NCBI RefSeq assembly: GCF_003019035.1
Contig: NZ_CP027447.1
Source of the DNA: Escherichia coli
GTDB lineage: Bacteria; Pseudomonadota; Gammaproteobacteria; Enterobacterales; Enterobacteriaceae
Strand: one strand, 5' to 3'
DNA length: 64,000 bases
Shown one piece after another: positions 3,231 to 54,151 of the stretch. How positions within the stretch are numbered: the first letter of the stretch is position 1; every line of letters starts with the position of its first letter. The position numbers were made by a program, and so were the translations under genes. The notes beneath the pieces were generated by a model. The model had not been told where the DNA came from and did no database searches. It saw only the letters and a list, made by a program, of their open reading frames with translations.

Positions 3231-3298
3231 TGATGTGGTGGGACGTGTGAGCGCAGTGTTGATGGGGTAATGCTTTGAATTAGAAGCGGATTCTTATA

Positions 3299-3344
3299 AT
3301 TCGTAATGCGAAGGTCGTAGGTTCGACTCCTATTATCGGCACCA
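3299..3344 (+). pseudogene. thrW: 3' fragment (46 nt) of tRNA-Thr(CGU) thrW; island att junction
   Basis: ATTCGTAATGCGAAGGTCGTAGGTTCGACTCCTATTATCGGCACCA matches the anticodon loop (CGT), T-arm and acceptor 3' strand with CCA of thrW as I recall it. The 5' half (GCCGATATAGCTCAG...) is absent, so this is not an intact tRNA gene. Confidence 0.7.
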
Positions 3345-3707
3345 TTTAAATCAATAAGTTATCTCACATTTAAGTAAACTACGTTCTCCTCTTGTGCCTT
3401 TGATTTTGCTCGCGTGCGCGGTGAAATGCCTGACTGAAAGGTGAGCATATCGACGAACCATTTCGAGAGTTTCCCATCTGCTCATTTTTAAGTGCAAGCA
3501 GGAAAACACCGGACTAAACCAATCAGCTGTTCGAAAATGGCAAGCGGATTAATATGCCATGGCGGGGCAGCTTTGAGCCGCACGCATGGGGTGTGGCAAG
3601 CCTGATGGATTTTGCTGTGCCTGTGGTGGCGTGTTTGCTGGTTTGGCTGTTGGTTAAACGCGAAAGTCATAATGCCAGGGGAATACCGCAGGGTGTTCAG
3701 GTTTTGC

Positions 3708-4556: not shown

Positions 4557-4570
4557 TGCATTGAATGATA

Positions 4571-4600
4571 AAAATGGCGCAAATACAGCGCCATTTTTAT
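4571..4600. terminator. Bidirectional intrinsic terminator between convergent yagU and ykgJ
   Basis: Stem ATGGCGC(4574-4580)/GCGCCAT(4588-4594), loop AAATACA, flanked by A-run upstream and T-run downstream. Confidence 0.5.
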
Positions 4601-4805
4601 AGGTTAAAAACATTGTTTTTAACTTTCTGATGGCAGATAGCCAGTGAGTACATCGCGCTACTTCAGGATGCTGTAGATCCGGAGAACACTATAGAGGAAG
4701 AGGCATTGTTGCTGGCAGATGGAAGAAGTTTCGGGTTTTGTTATCCCTGAAAAACGAAGCCCCGCGATTATAGCTGGCGGGGCAGTGCAATTAATTATTG
4801 CATAT

Positions 4806-5447: not shown

Positions 5448-6158
5448 TTAGTCCGCCGAAGGGGGCTTAGCAGGACAGGAATCGCTAATCTTAATGAATT
5501 TGTCGTTATAGACCAGATAATGATTCCCCGGCTGACGTAACTCAGGCTGATGAACCACGTCTCCCGGACGTAGATACCAGGCGTCGCCTTCCTCTTCGGT
5601 CGAATCACATCCTGGTTTAATCAGTAGCTTAAACCACGTGTTGCCGGTGTTACTTACCGTTCCTGTCACCTGGTCGAAGGACCATTTAAACTGAACCTGA
5701 CGTGGTCGTACTACCAGAATGGTATCCATCACCACCACCGGCTCCGTGCTGACCTCACCGCCGGTTGGGCTGCGTTTTGTCAGGTTACGAGTGGGGACCT
5801 CGCGAAATGAGACCCGGTAGTAGCGCTCGCGGTTATCCCGTGGACCATGATAGTAAAATTTAAAATACTCGCTCTCACCAGCCTGCAACGCCAGCTGGCG
5901 GGGGGCGAAAAGCAGTTCACCATCCACCGGTCGGGTGCGCAATTCACTGCTGCCCGGGCTATCAATAGCACTGATGGCAATACGGTATATCCGTGCGCTT
6001 TTGTTGTTATTCACTACACGTTTGCTGACAAAGTCAGTCTCGGACGGCAGCGAAAATGTCAGATTGCCGACCGAAATCGCCTGTGTCAAAGGTGCCGACA
6101 GCATACAGACCGCTGTCAGCAGGGCCTTAGTTAATGTTACGCCACGTCGCCTGAACAT
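5448..6158 (-). CDS. ecpE: E. coli common pilus chaperone EcpE
   Basis: ORF 5448..6203; start set at internal MFRRRG to give the 236-aa length I recall for EcpE. Signal peptide present. Confidence 0.85.
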
Positions 6159-7770
6159 GAATTTCTCCTGAAGCGCTGACTTCGCCAAACCAGCCGTTAT
6201 CATCTACCGTACGCAGCGAAATGGCGTTATCCATTGGAATCGAAAATTTGACTGTGGTCTTATCCATCTGCCCCACTTCGCCAGAGATATCAGTCCACGG
6301 TGTAGTCAGCCACAGCGCATCGGTCATATCCCGCCAGCTATCATCGCACCCGGCATCGTAGGTTTTTGTAGCTCCGTTGCGGGTAATAAAGGAAAGCGTC
6401 GCCGGGAACGGTACTTTCGCCTTACCGTCATCGGAGCTGAGGACACAATAGGAGCGTCCGCCAATCACCTGCGCGGGTCCGGTCACCTTGATCAGCACTT
6501 CGTCGGCAGCTGTTTTACCGCTGGTGGTTACGATATAGCCGAAATCGAGTGCCGACTCGCCGCTGCCAACATATCCCTCCCGCGACGGTGTCTGAGTATA
6601 TTCATCGGAGATAATACTGATGCTGAAATCACGGGGTTTGATAATCAGCGTGTTGGAGGTAGAAAATTCATACCAGCCAGACTCCGGTGATGTGGTGTTC
6701 TGAAAGCGAAAGTTGAACAGATCTTTGGTGTTGATATCGCTGATCCCAAGGTTCACCATTTGCTTAAAGAAGTTGCTCGAGAAGAAAACATAGATCGAGT
6801 CTGCGCTCTTCATCTCGTTGAAGGTGTAGTAATAGGCGGTATTGCTCACCGGTTTCCATGAACTGCCATTCAGACTGAACTGCATATCGTACGCCCCGAC
6901 GGCCGAGGCTAACGACGAGTTGGCGATCGCCGGGAAGATATGGATTGAGGTGTTGCTGAGCCCGTTTGTTTGCAGGGTATAGTTAACCATCTTACAACTT
7001 AATCCTGAACGGCTGCCGATGGTTTGCGTCCGGCAGTCGGCGTTCCCTTCGCCCAGAGTCGGAACTCCGTCGCTGTTGATAAATACTTCCGCCAGCGAGT
7101 GGGTATTTATCAACCGCAGATTTGCTGCTTTCGTATGGGTGACGTTGCGAACATACCAGTTGCCGGAGGCCTGATCCTTACAGCGTGCGCCGCTGCTGGC
7201 ATCATAGTTCACAGAGGTCTGGCAGGCATTGATGGTCATTGTAAAGCTGCTGCCGACGGGCATTTGTTGCAGATACTGGTAAAACGCGTCTGACAACATG
7301 CCGTGCATCCACTTCGCGCCGCCGCTGGTCACCGTCGCGCCATAAAATCCACTGGCGTCGGTGGTTTGCGGCAGGATAAGACTGGTGGTCATATTACACC
7401 CAGCGTACCAGTTGATGCAGCGCAAGCCAGTTAAAGGAGATGAAACTGGTGAATTTTCCAGCCACATATCAAACTTCCAGTTGGTATAAAGGCCGGTGTT
7501 GTAACCGTTATCAATGTAGCCGAGGCTTTGCTGATAGATGGTTCCTGAACCATTGTATTTTAAACCGGTCCAGCGGTTGGCACCGGTCAGGCGCGGATCC
7601 AGCGCCCCGCCAGGAGTGACGAAAAAGTTGTCGTCTGAGTTGTTTTCGACAAACACAAACTCGCGTGCCGGAGCATCCGCCCAGGTTGTTTTGCTCACTG
7701 CCGCTCTGAGCGCGGTTGCAGGCCAGATTAGCGCAAAGATTATCATCGCTATCAGTAGGTTAACTCTCAT
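6127..7770 (-). CDS. ecpD: E. coli common pilus tip adhesin EcpD
   Basis: 547-aa ORF with signal peptide, in the ecp operon order. Confidence 0.9.
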
Positions 7771-14667: not shown

Positions 14668-15810
14668 TTAATCCATTAACGGAAACCAGCCAGTTCCTTT
14701 CGATGTCTGAATTTGATCCCATAGTTTATCCGGAATGGTTAATTCATGAACAAGTTGTGGATTAAGGGTTGTTTGAATTTCATGGTCTCTACCTGATTCA
14801 GCTAAAGTCACCCATTCTGGATTTATCACCAGCCCTTTACCGATCGCAACAAGTGGCAGGCCAGTGGAAATTGCTTCTTGAGCCTGAGACGGTGTGCGTA
14901 TTTTACCTGCAGCGATTACCGGCACTCTGCCTGCAATATGATTTAAAATCAATTCAATAGTTCGGGGGCCATTTGGCGACTCAACAGGGTAGCTATCGTT
15001 AATACTGACCAGTGAGGTATGTATATACGAAATACCGGATGAAATGAGCCGATCAAGGAGTTTATAAGTATCCTCTATCCGCAGCCCCCCTGTTGCAGAT
15101 TCTTCAGGAGATATTCTGTAACCGATGGCAAAGGGCTTTGTCGCATATTCATAGACTACATTTTTTACTTCCTGTAATACGGCCAGCGGGAAGCGCATAC
15201 GTCCTTCGAGATCTCCTCCCCATCGGTCATTACGCTGGTTAAATAGAGGGGAGAAGAAATTCTGCAGAAGGAATCCGTGCGCACCATGAAGTTCAACGCC
15301 ATCAAAACCTGCTTTAATCGCCCTTTTTGTGACATCTCCGAATGCTCTAATGGTTTCCTGAATTTCGTTTTCAGTCATTTCCCTGCTTTGTACCACTCTC
15401 TTCATAAAGTCACCAGATTTTACGCTTGATGCGCTGGCACTAATAACATCGTTATTTGGCACAAGCTCCGGGATGGCTTTATTACCGGCGTGGAAAATCT
15501 GCAAAATAGCCGGAGCACCGCCACTTTTGGCTGCAGCTGCTAACTTTTCAAGGCTGTTAATGAAACGGTCGTCATACGCGGCAAATTCATGAGTAAACCC
15601 AATGCCGCTTGGCGTGACATAGGTGCATCCTGTTATTACTAAACCAACATTTTGTGAGCGACGTTTATAAAATTCGAGTTCTTGCTCAGAGATGGTTCCA
15701 TCAGGATTCGCTGACCAGGTCGTCATAGGAGCCATAACGATACGATTACGTAGCTTTATTTTTTCTGTCAGCATAAAAGGAGAAAACAATGATGGGTGTT
15801 TATTTGTCAT
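14668..15810 (-). CDS. NADH:flavin oxidoreductase, Old Yellow Enzyme family
   Basis: 380-aa ORF with OYE-like segments (IVMAPMTT, LQIFHAGNKA, FDGVELHGAHGFLLQNFFSP). Confidence 0.75.
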   Translation of the reverse strand: MTNKHPSLFSPFMLTEKIKLRNRIVMAPMTTWSANPDGTISEQELEFYKRRSQNVGLVITGCTYVTPSGIGFTHEFAAYDDRFINSLEKLAAAAKSGGAPAILQIFHAGNKAIPELVPNNDVISASASSVKSGDFMKRVVQSREMTENEIQETIRAFGDVTKRAIKAGFDGVELHGAHGFLLQNFFSPLFNQRNDRWGGDLEGRMRFPLAVLQEVKNVVYEYATKPFAIGYRISPEESATGGLRIEDTYKLLDRLISSGISYIHTSLVSINDSYPVESPNGPRTIELILNHIAGRVPVIAAGKIRTPSQAQEAISTGLPLVAIGKGLVINPEWVTLAESGRDHEIQTTLNPQLVHELTIPDKLWDQIQTSKGTGWFPLMD

Positions 15811-16054
15811 AACAATACCTCAAATGTTTATCTGATTTTGATGCGTATGTTTTAACTGGTTAGTTGTTGCCAGCTTTGGAACCAAGATTTATGGCTTTAT
15901 TTATAATTCCTTCAAAGGGTTTCTAATAATCTTAATAATTGAGTTGCTGCTTTTTTGTTTCTTTAATGAAATTTCTTTTTGAGTAATTTTATTATTGTTG
16001 TGTAGTCAATAAAGGATAAATGTCAGGGAGATAAGGAATCTCCCTGTAAGATTA

Positions 16055-16975
16055 TTACAAATGTGTTTTATAAAAAGGAATTAATTTGTCGAGTGCCTGT
16101 TTCACAGGTTCTGGCTTATCATACAGGTCGTAATGTGAATAACCTTCAACCACGACCAGCTCTTTATGTTTTGAGGCAGCGCGGCCAATAATTTCGCAGC
16201 CGTCACGGTAGGCACCAAATGCGCCCACTCTATCGCCCACCACAACCATTATTGGTTGAGTTAACAGGACTTCTGCAAGATGAAATGCATCCCAACCCAC
16301 GGCAACAGTCTGATGTGAGAATAGCGAACGATTTACCCCATTAGGTGCACAGCCTCGTGGCGAACGATAATATTCTGTTGCTTCAAAAAGGTCTATTTCT
16401 GTTAATCCCGCTTCAAGAGCTGCTTCCGGAGAAGAAGGGAGCAAATCATCTACGCGAAGTTTTGCGCCGTTAGCTTCGTCTGTTCTTTGTTGCGCCATTG
16501 CTTCGAGTGCTCCGATAGGATTAAACGCTGTAAATCCCTCACGCATAAGACGCCCGTAGTTTGCACCCGTGACAGTACCAATAGCTTTAATTCGACGTTC
16601 TGTCATTGCGGCATTAATGGCATATCCACCTCCACCACAAATACCCAGTACACCAATACGCCCGGCATCAACGTAAGGTAAGCTGGTAAGATAATCAACG
16701 ACAATGCTGAAGTCTTTTACTCGCATTGTTGGATCTTCCAGATAACGCGGTTCTCCACCGCTGCTTCCCTGAAAACTGGCATCAAAAGCAATGACGATAA
16801 AGCCAGCTTTTGCCAGGGCGGCACCATACACACTACCCGATGTCTGTTCTTTGCAGCTTCCAATTGGATGGGCGCTGATAATGGCAGGATACTTTTTTTC
16901 ACTATTAAAATCGTCAGGGAAATAGATATCAGCAGCTATATCCCAGTAAGTATGTTTTATCGAAACAGTTTTCAT
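16055..16975 (-). CDS. Alpha/beta hydrolase, dienelactone-hydrolase-like
   Basis: 306-aa ORF; nucleophile elbow with cysteine (GICGGGG) as in dienelactone hydrolases. Confidence 0.65.
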   Translation of the reverse strand: MKTVSIKHTYWDIAADIYFPDDFNSEKKYPAIISAHPIGSCKEQTSGSVYGAALAKAGFIVIAFDASFQGSSGGEPRYLEDPTMRVKDFSIVVDYLTSLPYVDAGRIGVLGICGGGGYAINAAMTERRIKAIGTVTGANYGRLMREGFTAFNPIGALEAMAQQRTDEANGAKLRVDDLLPSSPEAALEAGLTEIDLFEATEYYRSPRGCAPNGVNRSLFSHQTVAVGWDAFHLAEVLLTQPIMVVVGDRVGAFGAYRDGCEIIGRAASKHKELVVVEGYSHYDLYDKPEPVKQALDKLIPFYKTHL

Positions 16976-17131
16976 TTCAAGCTCCGGGGATTTGCCTAAA
17001 CAGATTTAAATATCATTTCTATTATCCGCAACTGGCATTCGTGTTCATATCGAGAACGGCGTAATAGTATGACTTGTATTGGTTATCATCAATGGTCTAA
17101 TATCTATCACAGTGTTAAGTTAAGGTTTACA

Positions 17132-18058
17132 ATGATGAAAATAGAGCCTTCAATTTTGCCTTCTCTTGCCTGGTTTGCGCTTATTGTTCGTGCCGGCAGT
17201 TTTTCCAGAGCCGCTTCTGAAATGGGTATTACGCGGGCCGCATTGTCCCAGAATTTAAAATCTCTTGAGGAACGTCTTAACACCAAGCTGATATACCGTA
17301 CGACCCGCAATATGTCGCTTACTGAGGAAGGACAGCGTCTGTATGAAGTGCTGGTGTCGGCTTTGGGGCAAATTGATGATGCGTTGAAAGATGTCGGTGA
17401 TACCCAACTTGAACCTACAGGACTGTTGAGAATAAATTCCTCCCGTGTTGCAGCAAGGATGCTTGTTGAGCCTCATATTGGCGAGTTTCTTACTCGTTAC
17501 CCCAAAACAAAGATAGAACTCATTATGGATGACGGTTTATCTAACATTATTGCGGACGGCTGTGATGTGGGCATACGTCTTGAGCAAGGACTGGATGAGC
17601 ATATGACTGCCGTTCCTGTTTCTCCGCTTATTAAACTGGTTACTGTGGCATCGCCAGATTATTTAAAAGAACACGGTATTCCTGAAACTCCTCAGGAATT
17701 GAGTAACCATAATTGTCTTCGGTTGCGGCATAAAAGTAGCGGTGCACTCTCAGCATGGGAGTTTTCGAATGTTGTGGGGGGTAATGAAGAGTTCGAAATA
17801 GAGGTGTCAGGTAAGTATATTTCTAATGATGACGAAAGCATGATACGAATGGCGCTGAATGGAACGGGTATCATTCAACATCTGGATTTTGCAATCGCTG
17901 AACATATCAATGCGGGCAAGTTACAGCCGATTCTTGAGGATTGGGCCGTTTCATTTCCTGGATTTTATATATATGTTTCATCACGGGTGAGAATGCCCTC
18001 TAAAGTTCGTGCTTTTATTGATTTTATGGTGGAGAAAAGAGTAAAAATAGAAAGTTAA
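17132..18058 (+). CDS. LysR-family transcriptional regulator
   Basis: N-terminal HTH (FSRAASEMGITRAALSQNLKSLEERL) and LysR substrate-binding domain; start set at the internal MMKIEPS. Confidence 0.8.
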   Translation: MMKIEPSILPSLAWFALIVRAGSFSRAASEMGITRAALSQNLKSLEERLNTKLIYRTTRNMSLTEEGQRLYEVLVSALGQIDDALKDVGDTQLEPTGLLRINSSRVAARMLVEPHIGEFLTRYPKTKIELIMDDGLSNIIADGCDVGIRLEQGLDEHMTAVPVSPLIKLVTVASPDYLKEHGIPETPQELSNHNCLRLRHKSSGALSAWEFSNVVGGNEEFEIEVSGKYISNDDESMIRMALNGTGIIQHLDFAIAEHINAGKLQPILEDWAVSFPGFYIYVSSRVRMPSKVRAFIDFMVEKRVKIES

Positions 18059-18140
18059 TGATGTGTGTCAGAATATCGGTAAGAAGAATGGCGCAATCGT
18101 GAGGATACGTTTATTCATAATAAATCTCCTGAAAGTTTAG

Positions 18141-21064
<2,924 letters not shown>

Positions 21065-21614
21065 TTATCGTTCATGAGAAGCATAACGTAAAGGGAAGAG
21101 CTCGATTAGACGGCAGGATTTGTCAGGGGTTATGAACGAAATTCATAAATCTGTTTGAGTGTTGAGATGAGTAGTGCAAGTTCGATATCCCCGGAATTTA
21201 CAGTTCGATGAAGGAAAATGAATATCCATAAAAAATATATTGGTTTATCCTGGCGTATATACCTACTTCGACGTATTGCCAATCGTGGTAAATTAAAGGT
21301 AGGTCATTATTATTCACTCTGAATAATGAATTATTCACTGTCCGCAGAGTAATAAATATAACTTAGGTATCTATTTAATGACTTGCACAAAAAGCTAAAT
21401 TTTCACCCATAAATAAAAATATAATCCCGCGCCCAACCACCTGATGAGTGGCTACAGGCACTGGATATATTAGGTGGCGGTGTACTTTCTTACATAAAGG
21501 TATTTCCTTTTCTGCGGAAAAGGAAACCGGGAAATCCCCGGTTTTTCTGACAAGCAGACGCCATTATTTGTGTCTGCCTATGTTCGTTAATTCGTTCATC
21601 AGGAAATTATCTCA

Positions 21615-24600
21615 ATGTCACGTTATAAAACAGGTCATAAACAACCACGATTTCGTTATTCAGTTCTGGCCCGCTGCGTGGCGTGGGCAAATATCTCTGT
21701 TCAGGTTCTTTTTCCACTCGCAGTCACTTTTACCCCAGTAATGGCGGCACGTGCGCAGCATGCGGTTCAGCCACGGTTGAGCATGGGAAATACTACGGTA
21801 ACTGCTGATAATAACGTGGAGAAAAATGTCGCGTCGTTTGCCGCAAATGCCGGGACATTTTTAAGCAGTCAGCCAGATAGCGATGCGACACGTAACTTTA
21901 TTACCGGAATGGCCACCGCTAAAGCTAACCAGGAAATACAGGAGTGGCTCGGGAAATACGGTACTGCGCGCGTCAAACTGAATGTCGATAAAAATTTCTC
22001 GCTGAAGGACTCTTCGCTGGAAATGCTTTATCCGATTTATGATACACCGACAAATATGTTGTTCACTCAGGGGGCAATACATCGTACCGACGATCGTACT
22101 CAGTCAAATATTGGTTTTGGCTGGCGCCATTTTTCAGAAAATGACTGGATGGCGGGGGTGAATACTTTTATCGATCATGATTTATCCCGTAGTCATACCC
22201 GCATTGGTGTTGGTGCGGAATACTGGCGTGATTATTTGAAACTGAGCGCCAATGGTTATATCCGGGCTTCTGGCTGGAAAAAATCGCCGGATGTTGAGGA
22301 TTATCAGGAACGCCCGGCGAATGGCTGGGATATTCGTGCTGAGGGCTATTTACCTGCCTGGCCGCAGCTTGGCGCAAGCCTGATGTATGAACAGTATTAT
22401 GGCGATGAAGTCGGGCTGTTTGGTAAAGATAAACGCCAGAAAGATCCACATGCGATTACCGCTGAAGTGAATTACACGCCAGTGCCTCTTCTGACCCTGA
22501 GTGCCGGGCATAAGCAGGGCAAGAGTGGTGAGAATGACACTCGCTTTGGCCTGGAAGTTAATTATCGTATTGGCGAACCCCTGGAAAAACAACTCGATAC
22601 AGACAGCATTCGCGAGCGTCGAATGCTGGCAGGCAGCCGCTATGACCTGGTTGAGCGTAATAACAATATCGTTCTTGAGTATCGCAAATCTGAAGTGATC
22701 CGTATTGCTCTGCCTGAGCGTATTGAAGGCAAGGGCGGCCAGACGGTTTCCCTGGGGCTTGTGGTCAGCAAAGCAACTCACGGTCTGAAAAATGTGCAAT
22801 GGGAAGCGCCGTCTTTGCTGGCCGCAGGCGGAAAAATTACGGGGCAGGGCAATCAGTGGCAAGTGACGCTCCCGGCTTATCAGGCAGGCAAAGACAATTA
22901 TTATGCGATTTCAGCGATTGCCTACGATAACAAAGGCAATGCCTCGAAACGTGTGCAGACAGAAGTGGTTATTAGCGGAGCTGGTATGAGCGCCGATCGT
23001 ACGGCGTTAACGCTTGACGGTCAGAGCCGTATTCAAATGCTTGCTAACGGTAATGAGCAAAAGCCGCTGGTGCTGTCTCTGCGCGACGCCGAGGGCCAGC
23101 CAGTCACGGGCATGAAAGATCAGATCAAGACTGAACTAACCTTCAAACCGGCTGGAAATATTGTGACTCGTACCCTGAAGGCCACTAAATCACAGGCAAA
23201 GCCAACACTGGGTGAGTTCACCGAAACTGAAGCAGGGGTGTATCAGTCTGTCTTTACTACCGGAACGCAGTCAGGTGAGGCAACGATTACTGTTAGCATT
23301 GATGGCATGAGCAAAACCGTCACTGCAGAATTGCGCGCCACGATGATGGATGTGTCGAAGTCTACCCTGAGCGTGAATGAACTCTCAGGAGACGTGGTTG
23401 CTGATGGTCAGCAATCCCACACGCTGACGCTTACTGCGGTGGATACTGATGGTAACCCGGTGACGGGAGAAGCCAGCCGCCTGCGACTTGTTCCGCAAGA
23501 CACTAATGGTGTAACCGTTGGTGCCATTTCGGAAATAAAACCAGGGGTTTACAGCGCCACGGTTTCTTCGACCCGTGCCGGAAACGTTGTTGTGCGTGCC
23601 TTCAGCGAGCAGTATCAGCTGGGCACATTACAACAAACGCTGAAGTTTGTTGCCGGGCCGCTTGATGCAGCACATTCGTCCATCACACTGAATCCTGATA
23701 AACCGGTGGTTGGCGGTACAGTTACGGCAATCTGGACGGCAAAAGATGCTAATGACAACCCTGTAACCAGCCTCACGCCGGAAGCGCCGTCATTAGCGGG
23801 TGCTGCGGCTGTAGGTTCTACGGCATCTGGCTGGACAAATAATGGTGATGGAACATGGACTGCGCAGATTACTCTCGGCTCTACGGCGGGTGAATTAGAC
23901 GTTATGCCGAAGCTAAATGGACAGGATGCGGCAGCAAATGCGGCAAAAGTAACCGTGGTGGCTGATGCATTATCTTCAAACCAGTCGAAAGTCTCTGTCG
24001 CAGAAGATCACGTAAAAGCCGGTGAAAGCACAACCGTGACGCTTATTGCAAAAGATGCGCATGGCAACGCTATCAGTGGCCTTTCCCTGTCGGCAAGCCT
24101 GACGGGTGCTGCGTCTGAAGGGGCGACGGTATCCAACTGGACCGAGCAGGGCGATGGTTCCTATGTCGCTACGCTGACCACAGGGGGAAAGACGGGTGAG
24201 CTTCTCGTTATGCCGCTATTCAACGGTCAGCCAGCAGCCACCGAAGCCGCGCAGCTGACTGTTATTGCCGGAGAGATGTCATCAGCGAACTCTACGCTTG
24301 TTGCGGACAATAAGGCTCCGACCGTCAAAGCGACGACGGAACTTACCTTCACCGCGAAGGATGCGTATGGGAACCCTGTTAGTGGCCTGAAGCTCGATGC
24401 ACCAGTGTTTAGCGGTGCCGCCAGCACGGGATCAGAGCGACCTTCAGCAGGAAGCTGGACAGAGCAAAGTAATGGGGTCTACGTGGCGACCTTAACGCTG
24501 GGATCGGCTGCAGGCCAGCTATCAGTCATGCCGCGCGTGAACGGCCAAAATGCCGTTGCTCAACCACTGGTGCTGAATGTTGCAGGTGACGCTTCCCGGG

Positions 24601-25868
24601 CAGTGATCAGTGATATGGCGGTGAAGGTGAATAACCAACTGGCAAATGGACAGTCTGCTAACCAGGTAACCCTGACCGTCGTGGACAGCTATGGTAACCC
24701 GTTGCAGGGGCAAGAAGTTACGCTGACTTTACCGCAGGGTGTGACCAGCAAGACGGGGAATACAGTAACAACCAATGCGGCAGGTAAAGCGGATATTGAG
24801 TTGATATCAACCGTTGCAGGGGAACTTGAAATCGCGGCCGCGGTGAAAAACTCTAAGAAGACGGTCACGGTGAAATTCAACGCGGATGCCAGCACCGGTC
24901 AGGCAAACCTGCAGGTAGACACCGCCGTTCAAAAAGTGGCAAACGGCAAAGATGCCTTTACGCTGACGGCGACCGTTGAGGATAAAAACGGTAACCCTGT
25001 TCCAGGAACTCTGGTGACCTTTAATCTGCCTCGGGGTGTCAAGCCGCTTACAGGCGATAATGTCTGGGTGAAAGCCAACGATGAGGGGAAAGCAGAGTTG
25101 CAGGTGGTTTCAGTGACTGCCGGAACGTATGAGATCACGGCATCGGCAGGGAATAGCCAGCCTTCGAATACGCAGACTATAACGTTTGTAGCCGATAAGG
25201 CTACCGCAACCGTCTCCGGTATTGAGGTGATTGGCAACTATGCACTGGCGGACGGCAAAGCCAAACAAACGTATAAAGTTACGGTGACTGATGCCAATAA
25301 GAATTTGGTGAAAGATAGCGAAGTGACGCTGACCGCCAGCCCGGCTTCGTTAAACCTGGAACCGAATGGCACTGCGACAACGAATGAGCAAGGGCAGGCT
25401 ATTTTCACCGCCACGACCACTGTCGCAGCGACATATACACTCACAGCGAAAGTGGAACAGGCCAACGGTCAGGAATCGACGAAAACTGCTGAATCTAAAT
25501 TCGTCGCGGATGATAAAAACGCGGTGCTCGCCGCATCATCTGATGTGACTTCTCTGGTGGCGGATGGGGTACAGACCGCAACAATGACGGTTACCCTGTT
25601 CTCGGCAAATAACCCTGTTGGGGGGAATGTGTGGGTCGACATTGAGGCTCCGGAAGGGGTGACAGAGGCGGATTATCAGTTCCTGCCGTCGAAGGCCGAC
25701 CATTTCGCGAGCGGGAAAATCACGCGTACATTTAGTACCAACAAGCCAGGTACATACACATTCACATTCAACTCTTTGACATATGGAGGGTATGAAATGA
25801 AACCAGTGACTGTGACCATTACCGCGGTGGATGCCAATACGGCAACGGGCGAGGAGGCGATGAAATAA
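21615..25868 (+). CDS. eaeH: Intimin/invasin-like adhesin EaeH (FdeC), apparently intact
   Basis: Single 1417-aa ORF with an N-terminal beta-domain-like region and a long repetitive Ig-like C-terminus; no insertion sequence interrupts it. Confidence 0.85.
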   Translation: MSRYKTGHKQPRFRYSVLARCVAWANISVQVLFPLAVTFTPVMAARAQHAVQPRLSMGNTTVTADNNVEKNVASFAANAGTFLSSQPDSDATRNFITGMATAKANQEIQEWLGKYGTARVKLNVDKNFSLKDSSLEMLYPIYDTPTNMLFTQGAIHRTDDRTQSNIGFGWRHFSENDWMAGVNTFIDHDLSRSHTRIGVGAEYWRDYLKLSANGYIRASGWKKSPDVEDYQERPANGWDIRAEGYLPAWPQLGASLMYEQYYGDEVGLFGKDKRQKDPHAITAEVNYTPVPLLTLSAGHKQGKSGENDTRFGLEVNYRIGEPLEKQLDTDSIRERRMLAGSRYDLVERNNNIVLEYRKSEVIRIALPERIEGKGGQTVSLGLVVSKATHGLKNVQWEAPSLLAAGGKITGQGNQWQVTLPAYQAGKDNYYAISAIAYDNKGNASKRVQTEVVISGAGMSADRTALTLDGQSRIQMLANGNEQKPLVLSLRDAEGQPVTGMKDQIKTELTFKPAGNIVTRTLKATKSQAKPTLGEFTETEAGVYQSVFTTGTQSGEATITVSIDGMSKTVTAELRATMMDVSKSTLSVNELSGDVVADGQQSHTLTLTAVDTDGNPVTGEASRLRLVPQDTNGVTVGAISEIKPGVYSATVSSTRAGNVVVRAFSEQYQLGTLQQTLKFVAGPLDAAHSSITLNPDKPVVGGTVTAIWTAKDANDNPVTSLTPEAPSLAGAAAVGSTASGWTNNGDGTWTAQITLGSTAGELDVMPKLNGQDAAANAAKVTVVADALSSNQSKVSVAEDHVKAGESTTVTLIAKDAHGNAISGLSLSASLTGAASEGATVSNWTEQGDGSYVATLTTGGKTGELLVMPLFNGQPAATEAAQLTVIAGEMSSANSTLVADNKAPTVKATTELTFTAKDAYGNPVSGLKLDAPVFSGAASTGSERPSAGSWTEQSNGVYVATLTLGSAAGQLSVMPRVNGQNAVAQPLVLNVAGDASRAVISDMAVKVNNQLANGQSANQVTLTVVDSYGNPLQGQEVTLTLPQGVTSKTGNTVTTNAAGKADIELISTVAGELEIAAAVKNSKKTVTVKFNADASTGQANLQVDTAVQKVANGKDAFTLTATVEDKNGNPVPGTLVTFNLPRGVKPLTGDNVWVKANDEGKAELQVVSVTAGTYEITASAGNSQPSNTQTITFVADKATATVSGIEVIGNYALADGKAKQTYKVTVTDANKNLVKDSEVTLTASPASLNLEPNGTATTNEQGQAIFTATTTVAATYTLTAKVEQANGQESTKTAESKFVADDKNAVLAASSDVTSLVADGVQTATMTVTLFSANNPVGGNVWVDIEAPEGVTEADYQFLPSKADHFASGKITRTFSTNKPGTYTFTFNSLTYGGYEMKPVTVTITAVDANTATGEEAMK

Positions 25869-25988
25869 TATTAAGAGTATGAAAGTAACATTCTAATAAA
25901 CAATAATGGCGTTGACATCTTCAACGCCATTATTTATTGAATTGCCTGACAGTAGTCTCGTTATAAATTCATTTAGATATAGCGATAA

Positions 25989-26879
25989 CTAAACCGGACG
26001 AACAGGGATAAATATTTCGCAAACAACATCATTGCTATCCTTTTCTACGAAATCTTCATTGTAATAAAATCGCTCAATATCACTGCCGTTCATTCTGGCT
26101 AACCTCCTGGCGGGTAATTCCATCAGATAGAGGTTTCGCGCCCATTCAGGGTAGTGCTCCCACTCACCTTCATAGCGGAAAGAGGCATACAGTCCTCGGT
26201 TAATTGTCCACTCTTTCGACATCTCTGAATCGGTTTGTTTGCATACCGTACCGGCAAAAGTTTCAACTGTGAGCAAATCGACCGATTTTGTTGACGGTTC
26301 GAACGTGGAGACGAAATAGATATCCGTCTTAAAATTCTTCATACATCTGGCTAAATGATGACGTCGCAGTTTGACTTCTTCATCCGGTGATTTATTCGAC
26401 ACTTCAATATCATATTTAAATGAATTGCCAAAAATAGGTGTCTCAGGAAAGTTGACTAATCTACACTCCGTCTTTTGCTGTTGACGTATTAAAAAAGAAG
26501 GGAAGATATTTGCGAGATCCCAATAATCACGGTGGCGGTATTCACGGGGAGAGCAGCCGAATAACTTTTTAAATTCGCGGCTGAATGATTGCTGTGAATC
26601 AAAATGCAAAGAGAGTGCAATATCAAGCATAGATTTCGCGGAGAGCCGGACAAGAATGGCGGCACGACAAAGCCTTCGTTTGCGAATGTATTCTCCCAAA
26701 GGCACATGCATGAAATTTCGGAAAAGAAGCTGGATGTTGCGTCTGCTGTAGCCAGATTTCTGTGCGATATCTTCGATTGAAATAGGGTGCTCAAGATTGC
26801 ACTCAATCCACTCCAGGAGCTGCTGTAGAATCTTCTGCCTGATCATCACATTCTCCGTTAATTCTTTGTCATATCGCAC
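25989..26879 (-). CDS. ykgA: AraC-family regulator with GyrI-like effector domain (YkgA)
   Basis: HTH_AraC segments (IEDIAQKSGYSRRNIQLLFRNF, FDSQQSFSREFKKLFGCSPREYR) plus C-terminal domain; true start may be internal. Confidence 0.7.
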   Translation of the reverse strand: MRYDKELTENVMIRQKILQQLLEWIECNLEHPISIEDIAQKSGYSRRNIQLLFRNFMHVPLGEYIRKRRLCRAAILVRLSAKSMLDIALSLHFDSQQSFSREFKKLFGCSPREYRHRDYWDLANIFPSFLIRQQQKTECRLVNFPETPIFGNSFKYDIEVSNKSPDEEVKLRRHHLARCMKNFKTDIYFVSTFEPSTKSVDLLTVETFAGTVCKQTDSEMSKEWTINRGLYASFRYEGEWEHYPEWARNLYLMELPARRLARMNGSDIERFYYNEDFVEKDSNDVVCEIFIPVRPV

Positions 26880-27078
26880 ATTTTCGTTATGTCCTGGGCC
26901 CTAAGTGTATCAAAAACAGCAAGGGCGAAGGCAAAAGCACTGATAGCGTCTGCTTCATTGCCCCAAAAATAGAGAGATTTCTGCCCTACATTATTAATGA
27001 ATTTTTTGCATAAGTGATATCAAAATCCACATACTAATTTGAGGTTACGTTTTAACGTAGACTCATTGTTCATACCTA

Positions 27079-27963
27079 ATGGAGGGACTGACAGTGGAAT
27101 TTTCCGTATTAAGTAACAATCTGAAAATGCCGATGATGGGATTTGGTGTTTTTCAGGTTACCGATAAAGACGTGTGCAAACAGTCAGTGTTGAATGCTAT
27201 CCGCACGGGTTATCGACTCATCGACACTGCAGCGGTATACGGTAATGAAGATGCCGTCGGTGAAGCCGTTCGTGAAGCCATATCTGAAGGTTTATGTACC
27301 CGAGATGAGTTATTTATAACGTCTAAATTGTGGGTGCAGGATATGTTGAATCAGGATACGGCAAAAGCAGGTATTGAAGCGTCATTAAAAAAATCGGGAC
27401 TAGAATACTTCGACCTCTATTTATTGCACCAGGCTATGCGCGATTATTTCAGTGCGTGGCGTGCACTCGAAGATACCTATGAAGAGGGGAAATTAAAAGC
27501 AATTGGGGTTTCCAATTTCTATCCTCATGTTCTGGCGAACTTTTGTGAAACGGTAAGAGTTAAACCGATGGTCAACCAGGTCGAGTTGCATCCCTATTTT
27601 GCCCAACCAGAGGCGCTGGCTACCATGAAGTATTATAGCGTGCAGCCTGAAGCATGGGCTCCGTTAGGTGGTGGACGACATAAACCCTTTGAAAATAATC
27701 TGCTTCAGAGTATTGCAGATGCCCATCAAAAATCGATTTCTCAAGTCATTCTGCGTTGGAATATTCAACGGGGAGTAGTCGTTATTCCGAAATCGACACA
27801 TCAACAGCGTATCGAAGAAAATTTTGCTATCTGGGATTTCTCACTGACAGAGAAAGAAATGGCACAAATTAGCTCGCTTGATTTGGGTTATGTTGGCGAA
27901 TCGGTAAAACATTTTAATCCTGAGTTTGTTCGTGGTTGTCTTGCTGTAAAAATACATGGTTGA
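27079..27963 (+). CDS. Aldo-keto reductase (294 aa)
   Basis: MPMMGFGVFQ...LIDTAAVYGNE...AIGVSNF; lies where I recall a K-12 dehydrogenase pseudogene (ykgQ). Confidence 0.75.
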   Translation: MEGLTVEFSVLSNNLKMPMMGFGVFQVTDKDVCKQSVLNAIRTGYRLIDTAAVYGNEDAVGEAVREAISEGLCTRDELFITSKLWVQDMLNQDTAKAGIEASLKKSGLEYFDLYLLHQAMRDYFSAWRALEDTYEEGKLKAIGVSNFYPHVLANFCETVRVKPMVNQVELHPYFAQPEALATMKYYSVQPEAWAPLGGGRHKPFENNLLQSIADAHQKSISQVILRWNIQRGVVVIPKSTHQQRIEENFAIWDFSLTEKEMAQISSLDLGYVGESVKHFNPEFVRGCLAVKIHG

Positions 27964-28124
27964 TATTAATCACTTATTTTACCTGAGATGACATAAATGT
28001 TTTAATAAGGGAGTTATATTGAACCTTACATTGTCCTGTTTCAGGTAATATGGCGTCAGGCTTCACCCATTAGCAAGGAAAGCCTGACGCCTGAAAAAGT
28101 GAACAACAGACAGTGTTCGGATTA

Positions 28125-28718
28125 TCAATATTCAGTTTTTAACGTTGAACTGGATTCATTACTGCGTTGTTTAAGAATGTCCCGCGCCGAATCTGCCATT
28201 ATCATGACAGCACCTGCCAGCATCAGAGTATCTTTCAATACCAGGCGACCAGCACCGGATAAATAAGGGAAACCATGATGAGCGTCACCCAATGCGGGTA
28301 CCCATGCCTCCGGGGTGGTGATTAAAAATGAGAGTGTTACCAGCGGCGTGGTAAATGCCATCAGCCCACCCAATAAACCTAACCAGCGATTGACAGGATT
28401 AGCCAAAACCAGCAGAGCAATAATCACCTCCACGACGCCAAGACCGTTGGAAAAACCATAGGTATTATTAGCCGTTTGCCATGCTCTTGCTTCTGGTTTG
28501 TATTCGCCTTCGTGAGTCAGATACTGTTTATAGTCTTCTGGGTGTTCATAAAAGAACGACATTAGTGGACTGTTTGCGACGAATGGTGTAATGCTGTCTG
28601 CCTCGTAAGGGACAAACTTTAATAACCCAATCCACATAAAAACAATCGCAATACTCAGACGAATCAATGTCAGGCCAATTTTATCTCCCCGACTTAACAG
28701 GTGCAGGTATTTCTCCAT
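28125..28718 (-). CDS. rclC: Reactive chlorine resistance inner membrane protein RclC
   Basis: Multi-pass membrane ORF downstream of rclB-rclA; start set at MEKYLHLL. Confidence 0.8.
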   Translation of the reverse strand: MEKYLHLLSRGDKIGLTLIRLSIAIVFMWIGLLKFVPYEADSITPFVANSPLMSFFYEHPEDYKQYLTHEGEYKPEARAWQTANNTYGFSNGLGVVEVIIALLVLANPVNRWLGLLGGLMAFTTPLVTLSFLITTPEAWVPALGDAHHGFPYLSGAGRLVLKDTLMLAGAVMIMADSARDILKQRSNESSSTLKTEY

Positions 28719-28729
28719 TGTAAACATCC

Positions 28730-28966
28730 TTATTTATACAATACTGCTGTTGCGGTTGAATTATTATCAATTCGCATCGATGTGACTTTCCAGGATGAAG
28801 CATTATATTTTCTGGCCATATCAGCAATGGCATCCTCAAGAACTGTCGGTGATGCTGATACTGACGAGACGCTGATATGTTTCAGAATTATTTTATCATC
28901 TGCATTGGTGGAAAATGCCATAACGCCAGATAATAGTGTTGCAAATAAAACAGATTTTTTAAACAT
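28730..28966 (-). CDS. rclB: Periplasmic DUF1471 protein RclB
   Basis: Small secreted protein MFKKSVLFATLLSGVMAFSTNA...; start set at MFKK. Confidence 0.8.
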   Translation of the reverse strand: MFKKSVLFATLLSGVMAFSTNADDKIILKHISVSSVSASPTVLEDAIADMARKYNASSWKVTSMRIDNNSTATAVLYK

Positions 28967-34852: not shown

Positions 34853-35383
34853 GAGAGATATGAAGTCTGGACATAAACCTGAAGAAGGCATACGAGGTTG
34901 AAAATAGCGTTTAGGACAACCTGACTTAACCCCGTTCCGTCATGGTTATGCTGCTCTTCTGTAAATATCCTGGCATTACTAATGCCAGGATATTTAAATT
35001 GAAAAAGACAGGCATCCATTCCTGAAAACGGGTTCCCTTCCCGGTCATTGTCACTTCAGCTTTATACAGGCACTCTCTATCAGAATGCTGTTTATTACTG
35101 CCCAGAGTTTTGTTGGTATTCATCTACCTTTTTCTTCAGATAAAATAAAATCTCAATCAGATCGATATCCTGTTTGATTTGTTCACTCATAATATATCCA
35201 GAAAATAAAATCTGCCGCAGATAAATGAATTAATAGTCTGTATCAGGAATGTTCGGGTTAAATATCAGCAAAAAGCCAGCATCATGAATACTGGATATGA
35301 AGCATGAGAGTTACCTCAGTGTTTTATATAAGGATTCGGTCCTCATAGTAGAACGGTAACTCTCAATCTGATAGGTTCCTGAG

Positions 35384-49592: not shown

Positions 49593-49766
49593 GCCGGATG
49601 CGGCGTGAACGCCTTATCCGGCCTACGGATGGCGCAAGAATCTGTAGGCCTGATAAGCGTAGCGCATCAGGCATTTGTCACCATTGCCGGTTGCGGCGTG
49701 AACGCCTTATCCGGCCTACGAGTGGCGCAAGAATTTGTAGGCCTGATAAGCGTAGCGCATCAGGCA
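49593..49766. repeat. Tandem REP/BIME elements between yahG and yahI
   Basis: Two near-identical ~80-bp units (49593-49672, 49687-49766), each an inverted pair of REP-like sequences (GCCGGATGCGGCGTGAACGCCTTATCCGGCCTAC ... GTAGGCCTGATAAGCGTAGCGCATCAGGC). Confidence 0.8.
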
Positions 49767-52158: not shown

Positions 52159-52455
52159 TGCGCATTTGAAACGCCTGCAACGGTGAATAGTAAGAGATTT
52201 AAGCCCCAGGGAGTGGGGCGGCAATGGTTTGCTAATGAATCATCCTGAACTTTATAATCTCCATGCATAATTTCCAGGGGGGTATTTGAGAGAAATACAC
52301 AAAAGTGAGTTTTAACAAAGATATTTATCAAGCCATAAATGTGACCTGCTTCGGATAAAAAGATTAAACATAGAAAAACCAATGATACTCTTGCTGATGG
52401 TTACCAACAGTAATTAAGATGTGATTTGTTTTTCCGTAATCGCGAAAATATTCTC

Positions 52456-52866
52456 ATGACCATAAAAGAAAAAATCTTACAAAAATATCCCCATGCTTCC
52501 TTTTGTACTTTTGGCGATTCAGCAGCGTTGGCCGATCACCTCGCAACGTTGATTGCGACTGGTGTTAAAACTGCTTCCTGTGGTTCGCTGGCGGGATGTA
52601 TTGAAGACAACATATTTCCGATGATTGGTGAGTATAAGATTGTAGAAAATAGCCGTGGTGAGCCTGTCTGTGTTATCAGAGTGATTGGCCTGCATTTACT
52701 GCGCTTTTCTGATGTCACCGCGGAGCTTGCCCGTAAGGAAGGTGAAGGTGACCTCAGTCTTGAATATTGGCGTAATGAACACCGTCGTTTTTTCCAGGTA
52801 GAAGGAAGTTATTCACCAGAAATGGACGTTATCTTTGAAGAATATGCCCTTATTGACGTTGTGTAG
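52456..52866 (+). CDS. ASCH (PUA-like) domain protein
   Basis: Small ORF; ASCH call is a weak motif-level guess (GVKTAS); start set at MTIKEKIL. Confidence 0.45.
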   Translation: MTIKEKILQKYPHASFCTFGDSAALADHLATLIATGVKTASCGSLAGCIEDNIFPMIGEYKIVENSRGEPVCVIRVIGLHLLRFSDVTAELARKEGEGDLSLEYWRNEHRRFFQVEGSYSPEMDVIFEEYALIDVV

Positions 52867-53116
52867 ATAACTATTTATCTACACGAAATAAGCTCACAAA
52901 CATAAAATATCGCTAATTTTGCTTATTTTGCTATTTTTTACGTGATGAATGTCACACTTATTGTTGCTGCCCGTTTTGTCCATATTTATAACCATATTTT
53001 TAATAGCTGCCTGAAATAGGGCTGTTTATTCTGCATAAAAATATTAGAAAATTCTTATTCTCTCCAGCGCGCTAATTTGGGCGAACACTTCCTGACTACC
53101 CTGCAATGAGGCTGAA

Positions 53117-54103
53117 ATGATGAATAAACGTTTTGTTATCAATATGGTGTCTTCGCTGTTATTAGGCGCTGCGCTAATTTCTGCGCCGCTCCAGGCAGCG
53201 GAAAAAGTCGTGGTGAATATCTCTAAAGTCGATGGTATGCCGTGGTTTAATCGCATGGGCGAAGGTGTGGTTGAGGCGGGTAAAGCCTTTGGTGTTAATG
53301 CGTCACAGGTGGGGCCTTCAAGTACTGATGCTCCGCAACAGGTTAAAATTATTGAGGATTTAATCGCCCGTAAGGTTAATGCAATTACTATCGTGCCAAA
53401 CGATGCCAACGTGCTGGAACCGGTATTCAAAAAAGCGCGAGATGCCGGAATTGTGGTTCTGACCAACGAATCTCCCGGTCAGCCAAGTGCTAACTGGGAT
53501 ATCGAAATCATTGATAACGAAAAATTTGCCGCTGAATATGTTGAGCATATGGCGAAACGCATGGGGGGCAAGGGCGGCTATGTGATTTACGTGGGGAGTT
53601 TGACCGTGCCGCAGCATAACTTATGGGCTGACTTGCTGGTGAAATACCAGAAAGAGCATTACCCGGATATGCATGAAGTTACCCGCCGCATGCCGGTTGC
53701 CGAGAGTGTGGATGACTCACGTCGTACCACACTGGACCTGATGAAAACCTATCCTGACTTGAAAGCGGTTGTCTCCTTTGGTTCAAACGGTCCGATTGGC
53801 GCGGGACGTGCAGTGAAAGAGAAACGGGCGAAAAATAAAGTCGCAGTCTATGGCATGATGATCCCTTCACAGGCGGCATCACTGATTAAAAGTGGTGATA
53901 TCACCGAAGGGATTACTTACGATCCGGCCTCTGCAGGTTACGCACTCGCGGCCGTCGCCAGCACGTTGCTGAAGGGTGAAGAGATCAAACCTGGATTAGA
54001 AATGGAGAATCTCGGTAAGGCCGACGTAGATATGGATAAGCGAATTATCCGTTTCCATAAGGTATTACTGGTCAACAAAGACAATATCGACTCACTTTAT
54101 TAA
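53117..54103 (+). CDS. Periplasmic monosaccharide-binding protein (LsrB/RbsB-like, CUT2 ABC)
   Basis: 328-aa ORF with signal peptide; C-terminus LLVNKDNIDSLY resembles the LsrB C-terminus as I recall it. Confidence 0.75.
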   Translation: MMNKRFVINMVSSLLLGAALISAPLQAAEKVVVNISKVDGMPWFNRMGEGVVEAGKAFGVNASQVGPSSTDAPQQVKIIEDLIARKVNAITIVPNDANVLEPVFKKARDAGIVVLTNESPGQPSANWDIEIIDNEKFAAEYVEHMAKRMGGKGGYVIYVGSLTVPQHNLWADLLVKYQKEHYPDMHEVTRRMPVAESVDDSRRTTLDLMKTYPDLKAVVSFGSNGPIGAGRAVKEKRAKNKVAVYGMMIPSQAASLIKSGDITEGITYDPASAGYALAAVASTLLKGEEIKPGLEMENLGKADVDMDKRIIRFHKVLLVNKDNIDSLY

Positions 54104-54151
54104 TCCATTTCTTCGGGGCGAAAGCCCCGATTCTTATTGCCAGGGGATGCT

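Follow-up and report, generated by a model that had tools for sequence, protein, structure and literature searches.

The window analysed here, a stretch of 64,000 nucleotides of Escherichia coli DNA, is identical to E. coli SCU-301, which was isolated as a human commensal. A reading of the sequence alone had proposed that a single uninterrupted open reading frame of 1417 codons in it is an intact eaeH/fdeC adhesin gene. The open reading frame list and the translation agree with this: the frame begins with ATG and contains no internal stop codon, and the RefSeq annotation of the identical SCU-301 sequence places the same start and stop under the name 'fdeC: inverse autotransporter adhesin FdeC'. 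The gene and the parts of its product are as follows.

21615..25868, + strand: fdeC (eaeH) coding sequence, 1417 amino acids plus stop, an intact type Ve inverse autotransporter adhesin gene
21615..21755, + strand: signal-peptide-like region, amino acids 1 to about 47, with a basic n-region, the hydrophobic core VAWANISVQVLFPLAVTFTPVMA and AxA-type motifs at 43-47 (read by eye from the translation)
21840..22664, + strand: beta-barrel translocator domain PF11924 (IAT_beta), amino acids 76-350 (Pfam, E 6.1e-110)
22686..23012, + strand: first Ig-like domain, D00-like, amino acids 358-466, adjoining the barrel (intimin D00 structure 6tqd, E 6.5e-12)
23034..25805, + strand: nine tandem Ig-like (Big_1 / Invasin_D3) repeats of about 105 amino acids each, amino acids 474-1397 (iterative self-HMM)
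23397..24638, + strand: equivalent of the crystallised, protective 'fragment B' (PDB 4e9l), amino acids 595-1008 (phmmer, gap-free, E 1.6e-239)

The domain searches confirmed the N-terminal beta-domain and the long repetitive Ig-like C-terminus that had been read from the sequence. IAT_beta scored 367.6 bits on the barrel against a Pfam cut-off of 22.3, and amino acids 113-357 were aligned by the beta-domain crystal structures 4e1t and 4e1s (invasin, intimin) with E values of 1e-73 to 1e-85. Pfam gave no match at E<=1 to amino acids 1-76; within the first 75 residues, 71 to 75 are identical to those of exported reference proteins. The self-HMM placed the starts of the tandem repeats near amino acids 474, 594, 700, 803, 899, 1007, 1106, 1209 and 1313, and Pfam recognized Invasin_D3 in nine stretches of the passenger and Big_1 in six. 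The D00-like domain and the nine repeats thus make ten Ig-like modules, and ten Big domains have been described for FdeC (PMC4943183). Two hallmarks of type Ve secretion are present, an N-terminal PF11924 barrel and a C-terminal passenger of immunoglobulin superfamily (Big) domains.

The last Ig-like repeat is the tip of the rod. A lectin-like or otherwise novel tip domain was considered and ruled out: Pfam matched the terminal 109 amino acids only with Invasin_D3 (E 1e-7) and Big_1, the AlphaFold model of amino acids 1000-1417 (mean pLDDT 78) shows four sandwich modules, all-beta and free of lectin-type helices, and the best Foldseek matches of this model in the PDB were invasin 1cwv and FdeC 4e9l. 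Neither LysM nor a C-type lectin domain was matched by Pfam in the whole protein or in its end fragments. FdeC resembles intimin (Eae) and Yersinia invasin in type Ve secretion, homologous barrel and Ig-like rod, but it lacks LysM and a C-type-lectin-like receptor-binding domain at the C-terminus, its Ig-like domains number ten instead of four, and it is not linked to LEE or Tir.

The best NCBIfam models on the open reading frame are those of IatC, Ilp and the intimin N-terminus, and FdeC proteins have older database names such as 'attaching and effacing protein' (as in the title of PDB 4e9l), on which grounds it could be assigned to another member of the intimin/invasin family (intimin Eae, YeeJ, IatC etc.). 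The NCBIfam matches to other families, however, cover merely the common barrel and fall far short of the curated cut-offs for IatC (NF040978, 632.8 bits against 2400) and intimin (NF033627, 381.3 bits against 1400, over amino acids 58-478 only), and the Ilp, YrIlm, SinH and YchO models also score below theirs. Besides the lack of LysM and lectin domains, it is synteny and full-length identity of 90-100% to annotated or characterised FdeC that decide, and membership of another family is practically out of the question. NCBI and UniRef both list the exact protein as FdeC, and every named member of its cluster at 90% identity bears that name.

The order of genes in the window (aldo/keto reductases, fdeC, HTH regulator, aldo/keto reductase, rclCBA-rclR) matches that of IHE3034. 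Overall, the gene lies between ykgR or the reductase block on one side and the ykgA-like HTH regulator with the rcl genes on the other, in the same order in SCU-301, IHE3034, H10407, O157, SMS-3-5 and K-12. The window FdeC is 100% identical to that of SCU-301 and, over its full length and collinearly, 92.6% identical to that of IHE3034, 93.3% to that of O157:H7 and 90.4% to EaeH of enterotoxigenic H10407; the published identity between strains is above 91% (PMC3324786). The FdeC of IHE3034 (ECOK1_0290; Nesta et al. 2012, PMC3324786; PDB 4e9l) has 1416 amino acids to the 1417 of the window protein, and shares its locus, its neighbours and its architecture of putative signal peptide, IAT barrel and ten Ig-like domains with neither LysM nor lectin. 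The barrel and linker (amino acids 76-357) are identical at 282 of 282 positions, and fragment B at 384 of 414 without a gap. Most of the 105 substitutions in 1415 aligned positions fall in Ig6-Ig9 and the tail, amino acids 1009-1417 being identical at 341 of 407 positions; there is a one-residue indel near amino acid 1311, and the last eight or so residues differ. This concentration of substitutions in amino acids 1009-1417 means that ligand specificity at the tip could differ between the two proteins. EaeH of H10407 is the same gene under an older name, collinear at 1418 amino acids in the same position, and its C-terminal third is identical to the window protein at just 321 of 409 positions. 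H10407 and the other phylogroup-A-type genomes examined differ from the window in lacking a 6.3-kb block of six genes that precedes fdeC (window 14760-21063), and the greater part of the aldo/keto reductase gene downstream of it. On this evidence, 21615-25868 is almost certainly the fdeC (eaeH) orthologue, undamaged and at its usual place in the chromosome of a commensal-type strain that matches SCU-301 exactly.

The absence of any insertion sequence or frameshift, noted in the sequence-only reading, held in comparison with five intact reference alleles, and no internal deletion was found in that comparison either. Alignment with functional FdeC, which that reading had named as the comparison able to overturn it, is collinear. 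Gain or loss of domains, frameshift and internal deletion relative to functional FdeC are ruled out, the only differences in length from the characterised alleles being one indel of a single amino acid and the final two residues.

The pseudogene state of eaeH in K-12 has already been published (PMC3324786), and the statement that an insertion element disrupts the K-12 copy was broadly correct: the K-12 remnant, which encodes 295 amino acids, ends at nucleotide 876 against an element called IS3 on the strength of its RefSeq annotation, but there is no simple insertion. Instead, IS3 stands at the edge of a deletion of about 3.7 kb (roughly window 22491-26241) that has taken the 3' 3378 nucleotides of fdeC and runs into the adjacent HTH regulator gene, whose 3' end is also lost. 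No terminal inverted repeats of this element were found by an exact 10-mer search. In BL21(DE3), fdeC has an internal deletion of about 3 kb with no insertion sequence. Homology to the window, at about 96.5% identity, extends over the first 876 nucleotides in K-12 or 957 in BL21 and over all of the upstream region; the window gene has neither lesion. A by-product of the comparison is therefore a precise account of the loss of fdeC in these two strains, by deletion in both and with an insertion sequence in only one.

These natural disruptions in K-12 (IS3 and deletion) and BL21 (internal deletion), together with a frameshift in the fdeC of EC581, lend some plausibility to a lesion of a kind that inspection of the reading frame would miss, such as a substitution that inactivates the barrel or linker, or a promoter defect. 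Against this, residues 76-357 are those of the IHE3034 protein, which is surface-exposed by experiment (PMC3324786), the 570 bp upstream of the gene align with those of O157 and IHE3034 without indels, both halves of the gene are identical to alleles of other genomes, and 100 public contigs encode exactly this protein. A hidden pseudogene is accordingly very improbable.

The sequences flanking the coding region contain three further features.

21050..21614, + strand: AT-rich intergenic control region (38% GC) between the divergent aldo/keto reductase gene and fdeC (sequence, GC content)
21497..21553, + strand: conserved structured element 60-115 nucleotides before the ATG, a putative fdeC leader (RNA fold, five-strain comparison)
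25902..25934, no strand assigned: perfect hairpin with a 14-bp stem between the convergent fdeC and HTH regulator genes (terminator scan)

An AGGA Shine-Dalgarno sequence lies 10 nucleotides upstream of the ATG. The control region is collinear with those of O157, IHE3034, H10407 and K-12 at a mean identity of 97%, and its last 250 or so nucleotides are identical to those of O157. No sigma-70-like promoter was found on the + strand upstream of fdeC by a consensus scan, in which total matches did not exceed the shuffled expectation. The element in the putative leader includes the hairpin CCGGGAAAUCCCCGG followed by UUUUU, resembling an intrinsic terminator; the fold of 21495-21560 has a minimum free energy of -25.3 kcal/mol (z = -4.3), which none of 200 shuffled sequences equalled. 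The element is nearly invariant across five strains, but the entire 5' part of the locus has diverged so little that this may be no more than background conservation. It matched no Rfam family at the gathering threshold or at E<=1, and no published description of it was found. The hairpin downstream of the gene, which resembles a terminator acting in both directions, folds at -18.7 kcal/mol (z -6.4) on one strand and at -19.3 kcal/mol (z -5.2) on the other.

By its near-identity to proteins described in the literature, the window FdeC would be exported by the Sec pathway on its putative N-terminal signal peptide; its beta-domain (amino acids ~76-357) would insert into the outer membrane with the aid of BAM and TAM, and the C-terminal passenger would pass outward through the barrel to be exposed as a rod of ten Ig-like domains without a lectin tip. 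This rod would be expected to bind collagens I, III, V and VI and epithelial cells, and to promote cell-cell aggregation and biofilm formation. TAM-assisted assembly has been reported for FdeC (PMC4943183), and adhesion, collagen binding and surface display have been demonstrated for the FdeC of IHE3034 (PMC3324786); surface display and binding to collagen and epithelial cells are predicted properties of the window allele also.

Expression would be conditional, with silencing by H-NS or other nucleoid proteins in ordinary culture and induction at 39 °C or above or on contact with host cells. Native FdeC was undetected under many in vitro conditions and appeared only upon host-cell contact (PMC3324786), and fdeC of enterohaemorrhagic E. 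coli is repressed by H-NS and detected only at >=39 °C, according to the accounts of Easton 2014 given in PMC11143625 and PMC6714894. The prediction that the strain probably expresses a functional adhesin stands as far as coding capacity and an intact upstream control region go, but is too strong in view of the published silence of fdeC in ordinary culture. It is defensible to say that the window gene can encode a functional, conditionally expressed adhesin. That the putative leader is a transcription attenuator or RNA thermosensor, aiding the switch-on at >=39 °C or on host contact alongside H-NS, is a speculative proposal with little probability.

An intact gene could nevertheless be cryptic, permanently silenced by H-NS or other nucleoid proteins and contributing to no phenotype. 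Such a state would fit the failure to detect native protein in many in vitro conditions (PMC3324786), the low GC content (38%) of the upstream region and the absence of a + strand sigma-70-like match there in the consensus scan, and the location of K-12 eaeH within a tsEPOD, where transcription is silent and even a lac promoter placed in it is shut down (PMC4191405). Permanent silence is not easily reconciled, however, with the purifying selection along the gene, where dN/dS is 0.19 over the full length and 0.04 for the barrel, or with its retention in about 85% of complete genomes; a gene never used would hardly be kept in this way. Moreover, the stretch of control region shared with O157 belongs to a strain in which expression at >=39 °C is reported (Easton 2014, as described in PMC11143625), and a mutant in fdeC was attenuated in mouse urinary tract infection (PMC3324786). 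A cryptic gene is therefore unlikely, and conditional expression is preferred. The same dN/dS values, in an open reading frame of 4.25 kb, far longer than expected by chance, indicate a real gene under selection.

At least 80% of fdeC was present in 4585 of 5426 complete E. coli genomes, and prevalence in the species has been covered before (PMC6714894). An intact fdeC is thus the already known, normal state for most E. coli, in contrast to the broken copies of laboratory strains such as K-12 and BL21, and no distinguishing mark of this strain, which keeps the adhesin capacity of most natural E. coli; the finding has little weight beyond correct annotation.

Compared with its flanks, fdeC is locally hypervariable: a megablast search with the gene returned 1 record at an identity of at least 99%, as against 335 and 1257 for the two flanking sequences. 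A unique allele was considered and rejected, the flanks being ordinary, the allele recombinant and the exact protein present on public contigs. Counts of mismatches per 200 nucleotides placed a crossover within the gene.

23447..24047, + strand: inferred recombination crossover zone inside fdeC (mismatch counts per 200 nucleotides)

Upstream of this zone, the E7-1N7 allele had no mismatch to the window in any bin from 19893 through 23447, with one mismatch each in the bins at 19520 and 19718 further upstream; downstream of it, the WP2-W18 allele had none from 24047 to 28825, save one in the bin at 24847. The window fdeC is thus a mosaic of two circulating allele types, E7-1N7-type and WP2-W18-type, joined by homologous recombination.

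FdeC is known both as a vaccine antigen and as a factor in colonisation. Its distal Ig domains are its most variable part, as expected of an exposed antigen, with dN/dS of 0.29-0.39 in Ig6-9. Positive selection was considered and rejected at the level of region-wide averages over 8 alleles, in which no region of the gene had dN/dS >1, the maximum being 0.39 in Ig6-7. Intragenic recombination and distal variation are both relevant to the use of FdeC fragments as broadly protective antigens.

The fdeC gene, known earlier as eaeH, is present as a single ORF in the ORF listing and its translation:

21615..25868, + strand: fdeC ORF, ATG start, 1417 codons and stop

The sequence-only reading had the same coordinates, strand and length for one uninterrupted 1417-aa ORF. 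Its layout of an N-terminal beta-domain-like region and a repetitive Ig-like C-terminus is also correct, because Pfam matches place the inverse-autotransporter beta-domain (PF11924) at residues 76-350 (E 6e-110) and cover the remainder with nine stretches of Invasin_D3 and six of Big_1. Iterative self-HMM searching found nine repeats of about 105 residues, starting near residues 474, 594, 700, 803, 899, 1007, 1106, 1209 and 1313; together with a domain resembling D00, the first Ig-like domain beside the barrel, these make ten, in agreement with the 10 Big domains described for FdeC (PMC4943183). The terminal 109 residues had only Invasin_D3 and Big_1 matches in Pfam and residues 1-76 had none, and thus the protein has neither a LysM nor a C-type lectin domain. 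Read by eye, the start of the translation resembles a long Sec signal peptide. An AlphaFold model of residues 1000-1417 shows only beta structure, in four sandwich modules, with a mean pLDDT of 78 and values mostly of 80-95 in the terminal domain; among PDB structures, invasin 1cwv ranks first by E-value and FdeC 4e9l ranks first by TM-score. The ORF has 52% GC, compared with 38% in the intergenic 565 bp upstream of it and 48% in the window as a whole.

The identification as eaeH/fdeC held up by annotation, gene order and structural alignment. The matched gene is annotated in the database as "fdeC: inverse autotransporter adhesin FdeC", and residues 595-1008 align gap-free with the crystallised FdeC fragment (PDB 4e9l; E 1.6e-239); the barrel structures of invasin and intimin match residues 113-357, and intimin D00 matches residues 358-466. 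The gene encodes FdeC and none of its paralogues, because NCBIfam models of intimin, IatC, Ilp, SinH and YchO match the shared barrel region only, far under their cut-offs. The neighbourhood is the standard one, in the order ecp operon, ykgMO, ykgR, a six-gene reductase/hydrolase/LysR block, fdeC, a convergent HTH regulator, an aldo/keto reductase, rclCBA-rclR and ykgEFG, as in IHE3034, the ExPEC strain in which FdeC was defined. The window is identical across 20,254 nt to SCU-301, a commensal isolate from a rectal swab of a healthy student.

Intact reference alleles were extracted from five strains and their proteins aligned to the window FdeC.

Reference FdeC proteins (length; amino acid identity to the window)
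IHE3034 FdeC: 1416 aa; 92.6%
ETEC H10407 EaeH: 1418 aa; 90.4%
O157:H7 strain 7409 FdeC: 1417 aa; 93.3%
SCEC020007 FdeC: 1418 aa; 90.4%
AHM8C212RI FdeC: 1417 aa; 93.8%

The proteins differ in length only by a one-residue indel at alignment column 1311 and, compared with IHE3034, by the two C-terminal residues. The protein alignment to these five alleles revealed no frameshift, internal stop, or domain loss or gain, and so neither an internal deletion nor a frameshift relative to functional FdeC, the defects that the sequence-only reading had named as telling against it; the observation of an intact gene is confirmed. The barrel and linker (residues 76-357) are identical to IHE3034 FdeC at 282 of 282 positions and residues 358-594 at 232 of 237, and divergence lies mostly in residues 1009-1417 (341/407 identical).

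Broken copies are found elsewhere. In a K-12 derivative, the annotation gives fdeC as an 876-nt partial pseudogene (a remnant ORF of 295 aa), followed directly by an IS3 transposase and then a truncated HTH gene. BLAST homology to the window ends at 22490 and restarts at about 26242; therefore the IS3 marks the edge of a deletion of about 3.7 kb, in which fdeC lost its 3' 3378 nt and the neighbouring gene its 3' end. The earlier statement that an insertion element disrupts the K-12 gene thus stands in that the remnant adjoins IS3, but not as a simple insertion. BL21(DE3) fdeC lacks roughly window positions 22572-25620 and has no IS; a 410-aa ORF in its remnant (6001-7230 of the extracted locus) spans the junction of the deletion of about 3 kb, joining most of the barrel to the final ~90 residues, so that this deletion may be in frame. 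The RefSeq annotation of this remnant, a partial pseudogene, covers only the first 957 nt. In the pig isolate EC581 (NZ_AP027432.1; 3001-7255 of the extracted locus), a 95% identical fdeC of 4255 nt is annotated as a frameshifted pseudogene, a case of natural inactivation beyond laboratory strains. Intact fdeC is the rule in E. coli: megablast matched the gene in 5077 of 5426 complete genomes, over at least 80% of its length in 4585 (84.5%). Published prevalences of fdeC or a complete copy are 99% in ExPEC and 83% in commensal/fecal isolates (PMC3324786), and 67% among 126 complete genomes and 83% in ECOR (PMC6714894). The founding FdeC paper already reported the K-12 pseudogene and noted full-length fdeC in commensals (PMC3324786). 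Both the identification and the K-12 contrast are right and already published, and fdeC here offers nothing of a new kind.

Over the 570-bp control region, the window, O157, IHE3034, H10407 and K-12 are collinear with 97% identity; the window's final ~250 nt there equal those of O157, and no sign of a regulatory defect is apparent. Native FdeC was undetected in vitro and seen only on bacteria touching host cells (PMC3324786); in EHEC, H-NS and temperature control it, and it is detected only at 39 C or above (Easton 2014, as cited by PMC6714894 and PMC11143625); expression in APEC is temperature-induced (PMC11143625); and the eaeH locus of K-12 forms a transcriptionally silent protein-occupancy domain, in which even a lac promoter is repressed once inserted (PMC4191405). 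Because of these data, the proposal that the strain probably expresses a functional adhesin is overstated, although coding capacity and control region are intact: fdeC here encodes an adhesin that is apparently functional and is conditionally expressed. From steps established at the family level we infer that the window FdeC would be exported by Sec and its barrel inserted via BAM with the assistance of TAM, as demonstrated for FdeC (PMC4943183); the Ig rod at the C-terminus would then pass outward through the barrel, and once exposed would bind collagens I, III, V and VI and epithelial cells and promote aggregation, activities reported for FdeC (PMC3324786).

Two structured elements flank the gene:

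21497-21553, + strand: conserved structured element, 60-115 nt 5' of the fdeC ATG
25902-25934: hairpin with a perfect 14-bp stem, in a spacer of 29% GC that separates fdeC from the convergent HTH-regulator gene

The upstream element consists of two neighbouring hairpins, the second of which (CCGGGAAAUCCCCGG, then UUUUU) looks like an intrinsic terminator. It is nearly invariant across five divergent strains, and positions 21495-21560 fold with an MFE of -25.3 kcal/mol (z = -4.3). There is no Rfam match to the element, and no description of it was found in the literature; this strongly folding, conserved putative leader is the sole feature of the locus for which that is so. It could act as an attenuator or thermosensor, since fdeC reportedly switches on at 39 C or above. 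The downstream hairpin is probably a bidirectional terminator.

The exact nucleotide sequence of fdeC occurs in only one of the 5426 complete genomes; the next closest matches are at 98.8%, 97.7% and 95.6%, and most genomes are at 90-95%. Flank matches of at least 99% number 335 records downstream and 1257 upstream, and SMS-3-5-like genomes have flanks at 99.5-99.7% with fdeC at just 95.6%. In mismatch counts per 200 nt, E7-1N7 has none against the window from the 19893 bin through the 23447 bin (gene nt ~2030) and one each in the upstream 19520 and 19718 bins, and WP2-W18 agrees from gene nt ~2430 onwards, as far as 3 kb past the gene, save one mismatch in the 24847 bin. This pattern indicates that the allele is an intragenic recombinant of two circulating types, which accounts for its rarity. 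The exact protein, named FdeC, is found on 100 contigs of public assemblies, and 17,949 sequences belong to its 90% cluster.

dN/dS by region (Nei-Gojobori, eight alleles)
Barrel: 0.04
D00 to Ig5: 0.10-0.17
Ig6-7: 0.39
Ig8-9 and tail: 0.29
Whole gene: 0.19

Purifying selection acts along all of fdeC and is weakest at the exposed distal end, the usual profile for a surface antigen.

Several other features of the window were noted:

~3269-3344: tRNA-Thr (thrW position, beside proA)
~3359-3513: frameshifted integrase remnant
4562-4763, + strand: IS009 (Rfam gathering-level match, 191.7 bits)
14760-21063: 6.3-kb six-gene block upstream of fdeC
27110-27834: most of an aldo/keto reductase gene downstream of fdeC
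~34900-35200: ykgG-betA interval, small hypothetical ORFs only
49647-49716, - strand: naRNA4/CssrE, a REP-derived nucleoid-associated RNA (Rfam gathering-level match, 72.1 bits)
~52450-57550: four-gene sugar or AI-2-type ABC transporter block and ASCH-domain gene, between yahK and yahJ

The thrW tRNA-Thr is a well-known integration site; no prophage or island is present there in this strain, and only the integrase remnant adjoins the tRNA. The six-gene block encodes an NADH-dependent flavin oxidoreductase, an alpha/beta hydrolase, two LysR regulators and two aldo/keto reductases. The block and the downstream aldo/keto reductase gene are present in SCU-301, IHE3034 and SMS-3-5, whereas K-12, BL21, H10407 and SCEC020007 lack the block and most of that gene, and the version in O157:H7 7409 is a different one and partly degraded. 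In contrast to the window, the ykgG-betA interval contains ykgH and the hyxR-hyxA-hyxB-ipbA island in IHE3034, and ykgH in H10407. The transporter block and ASCH-domain gene are presumably not part of the K-12 gene order.
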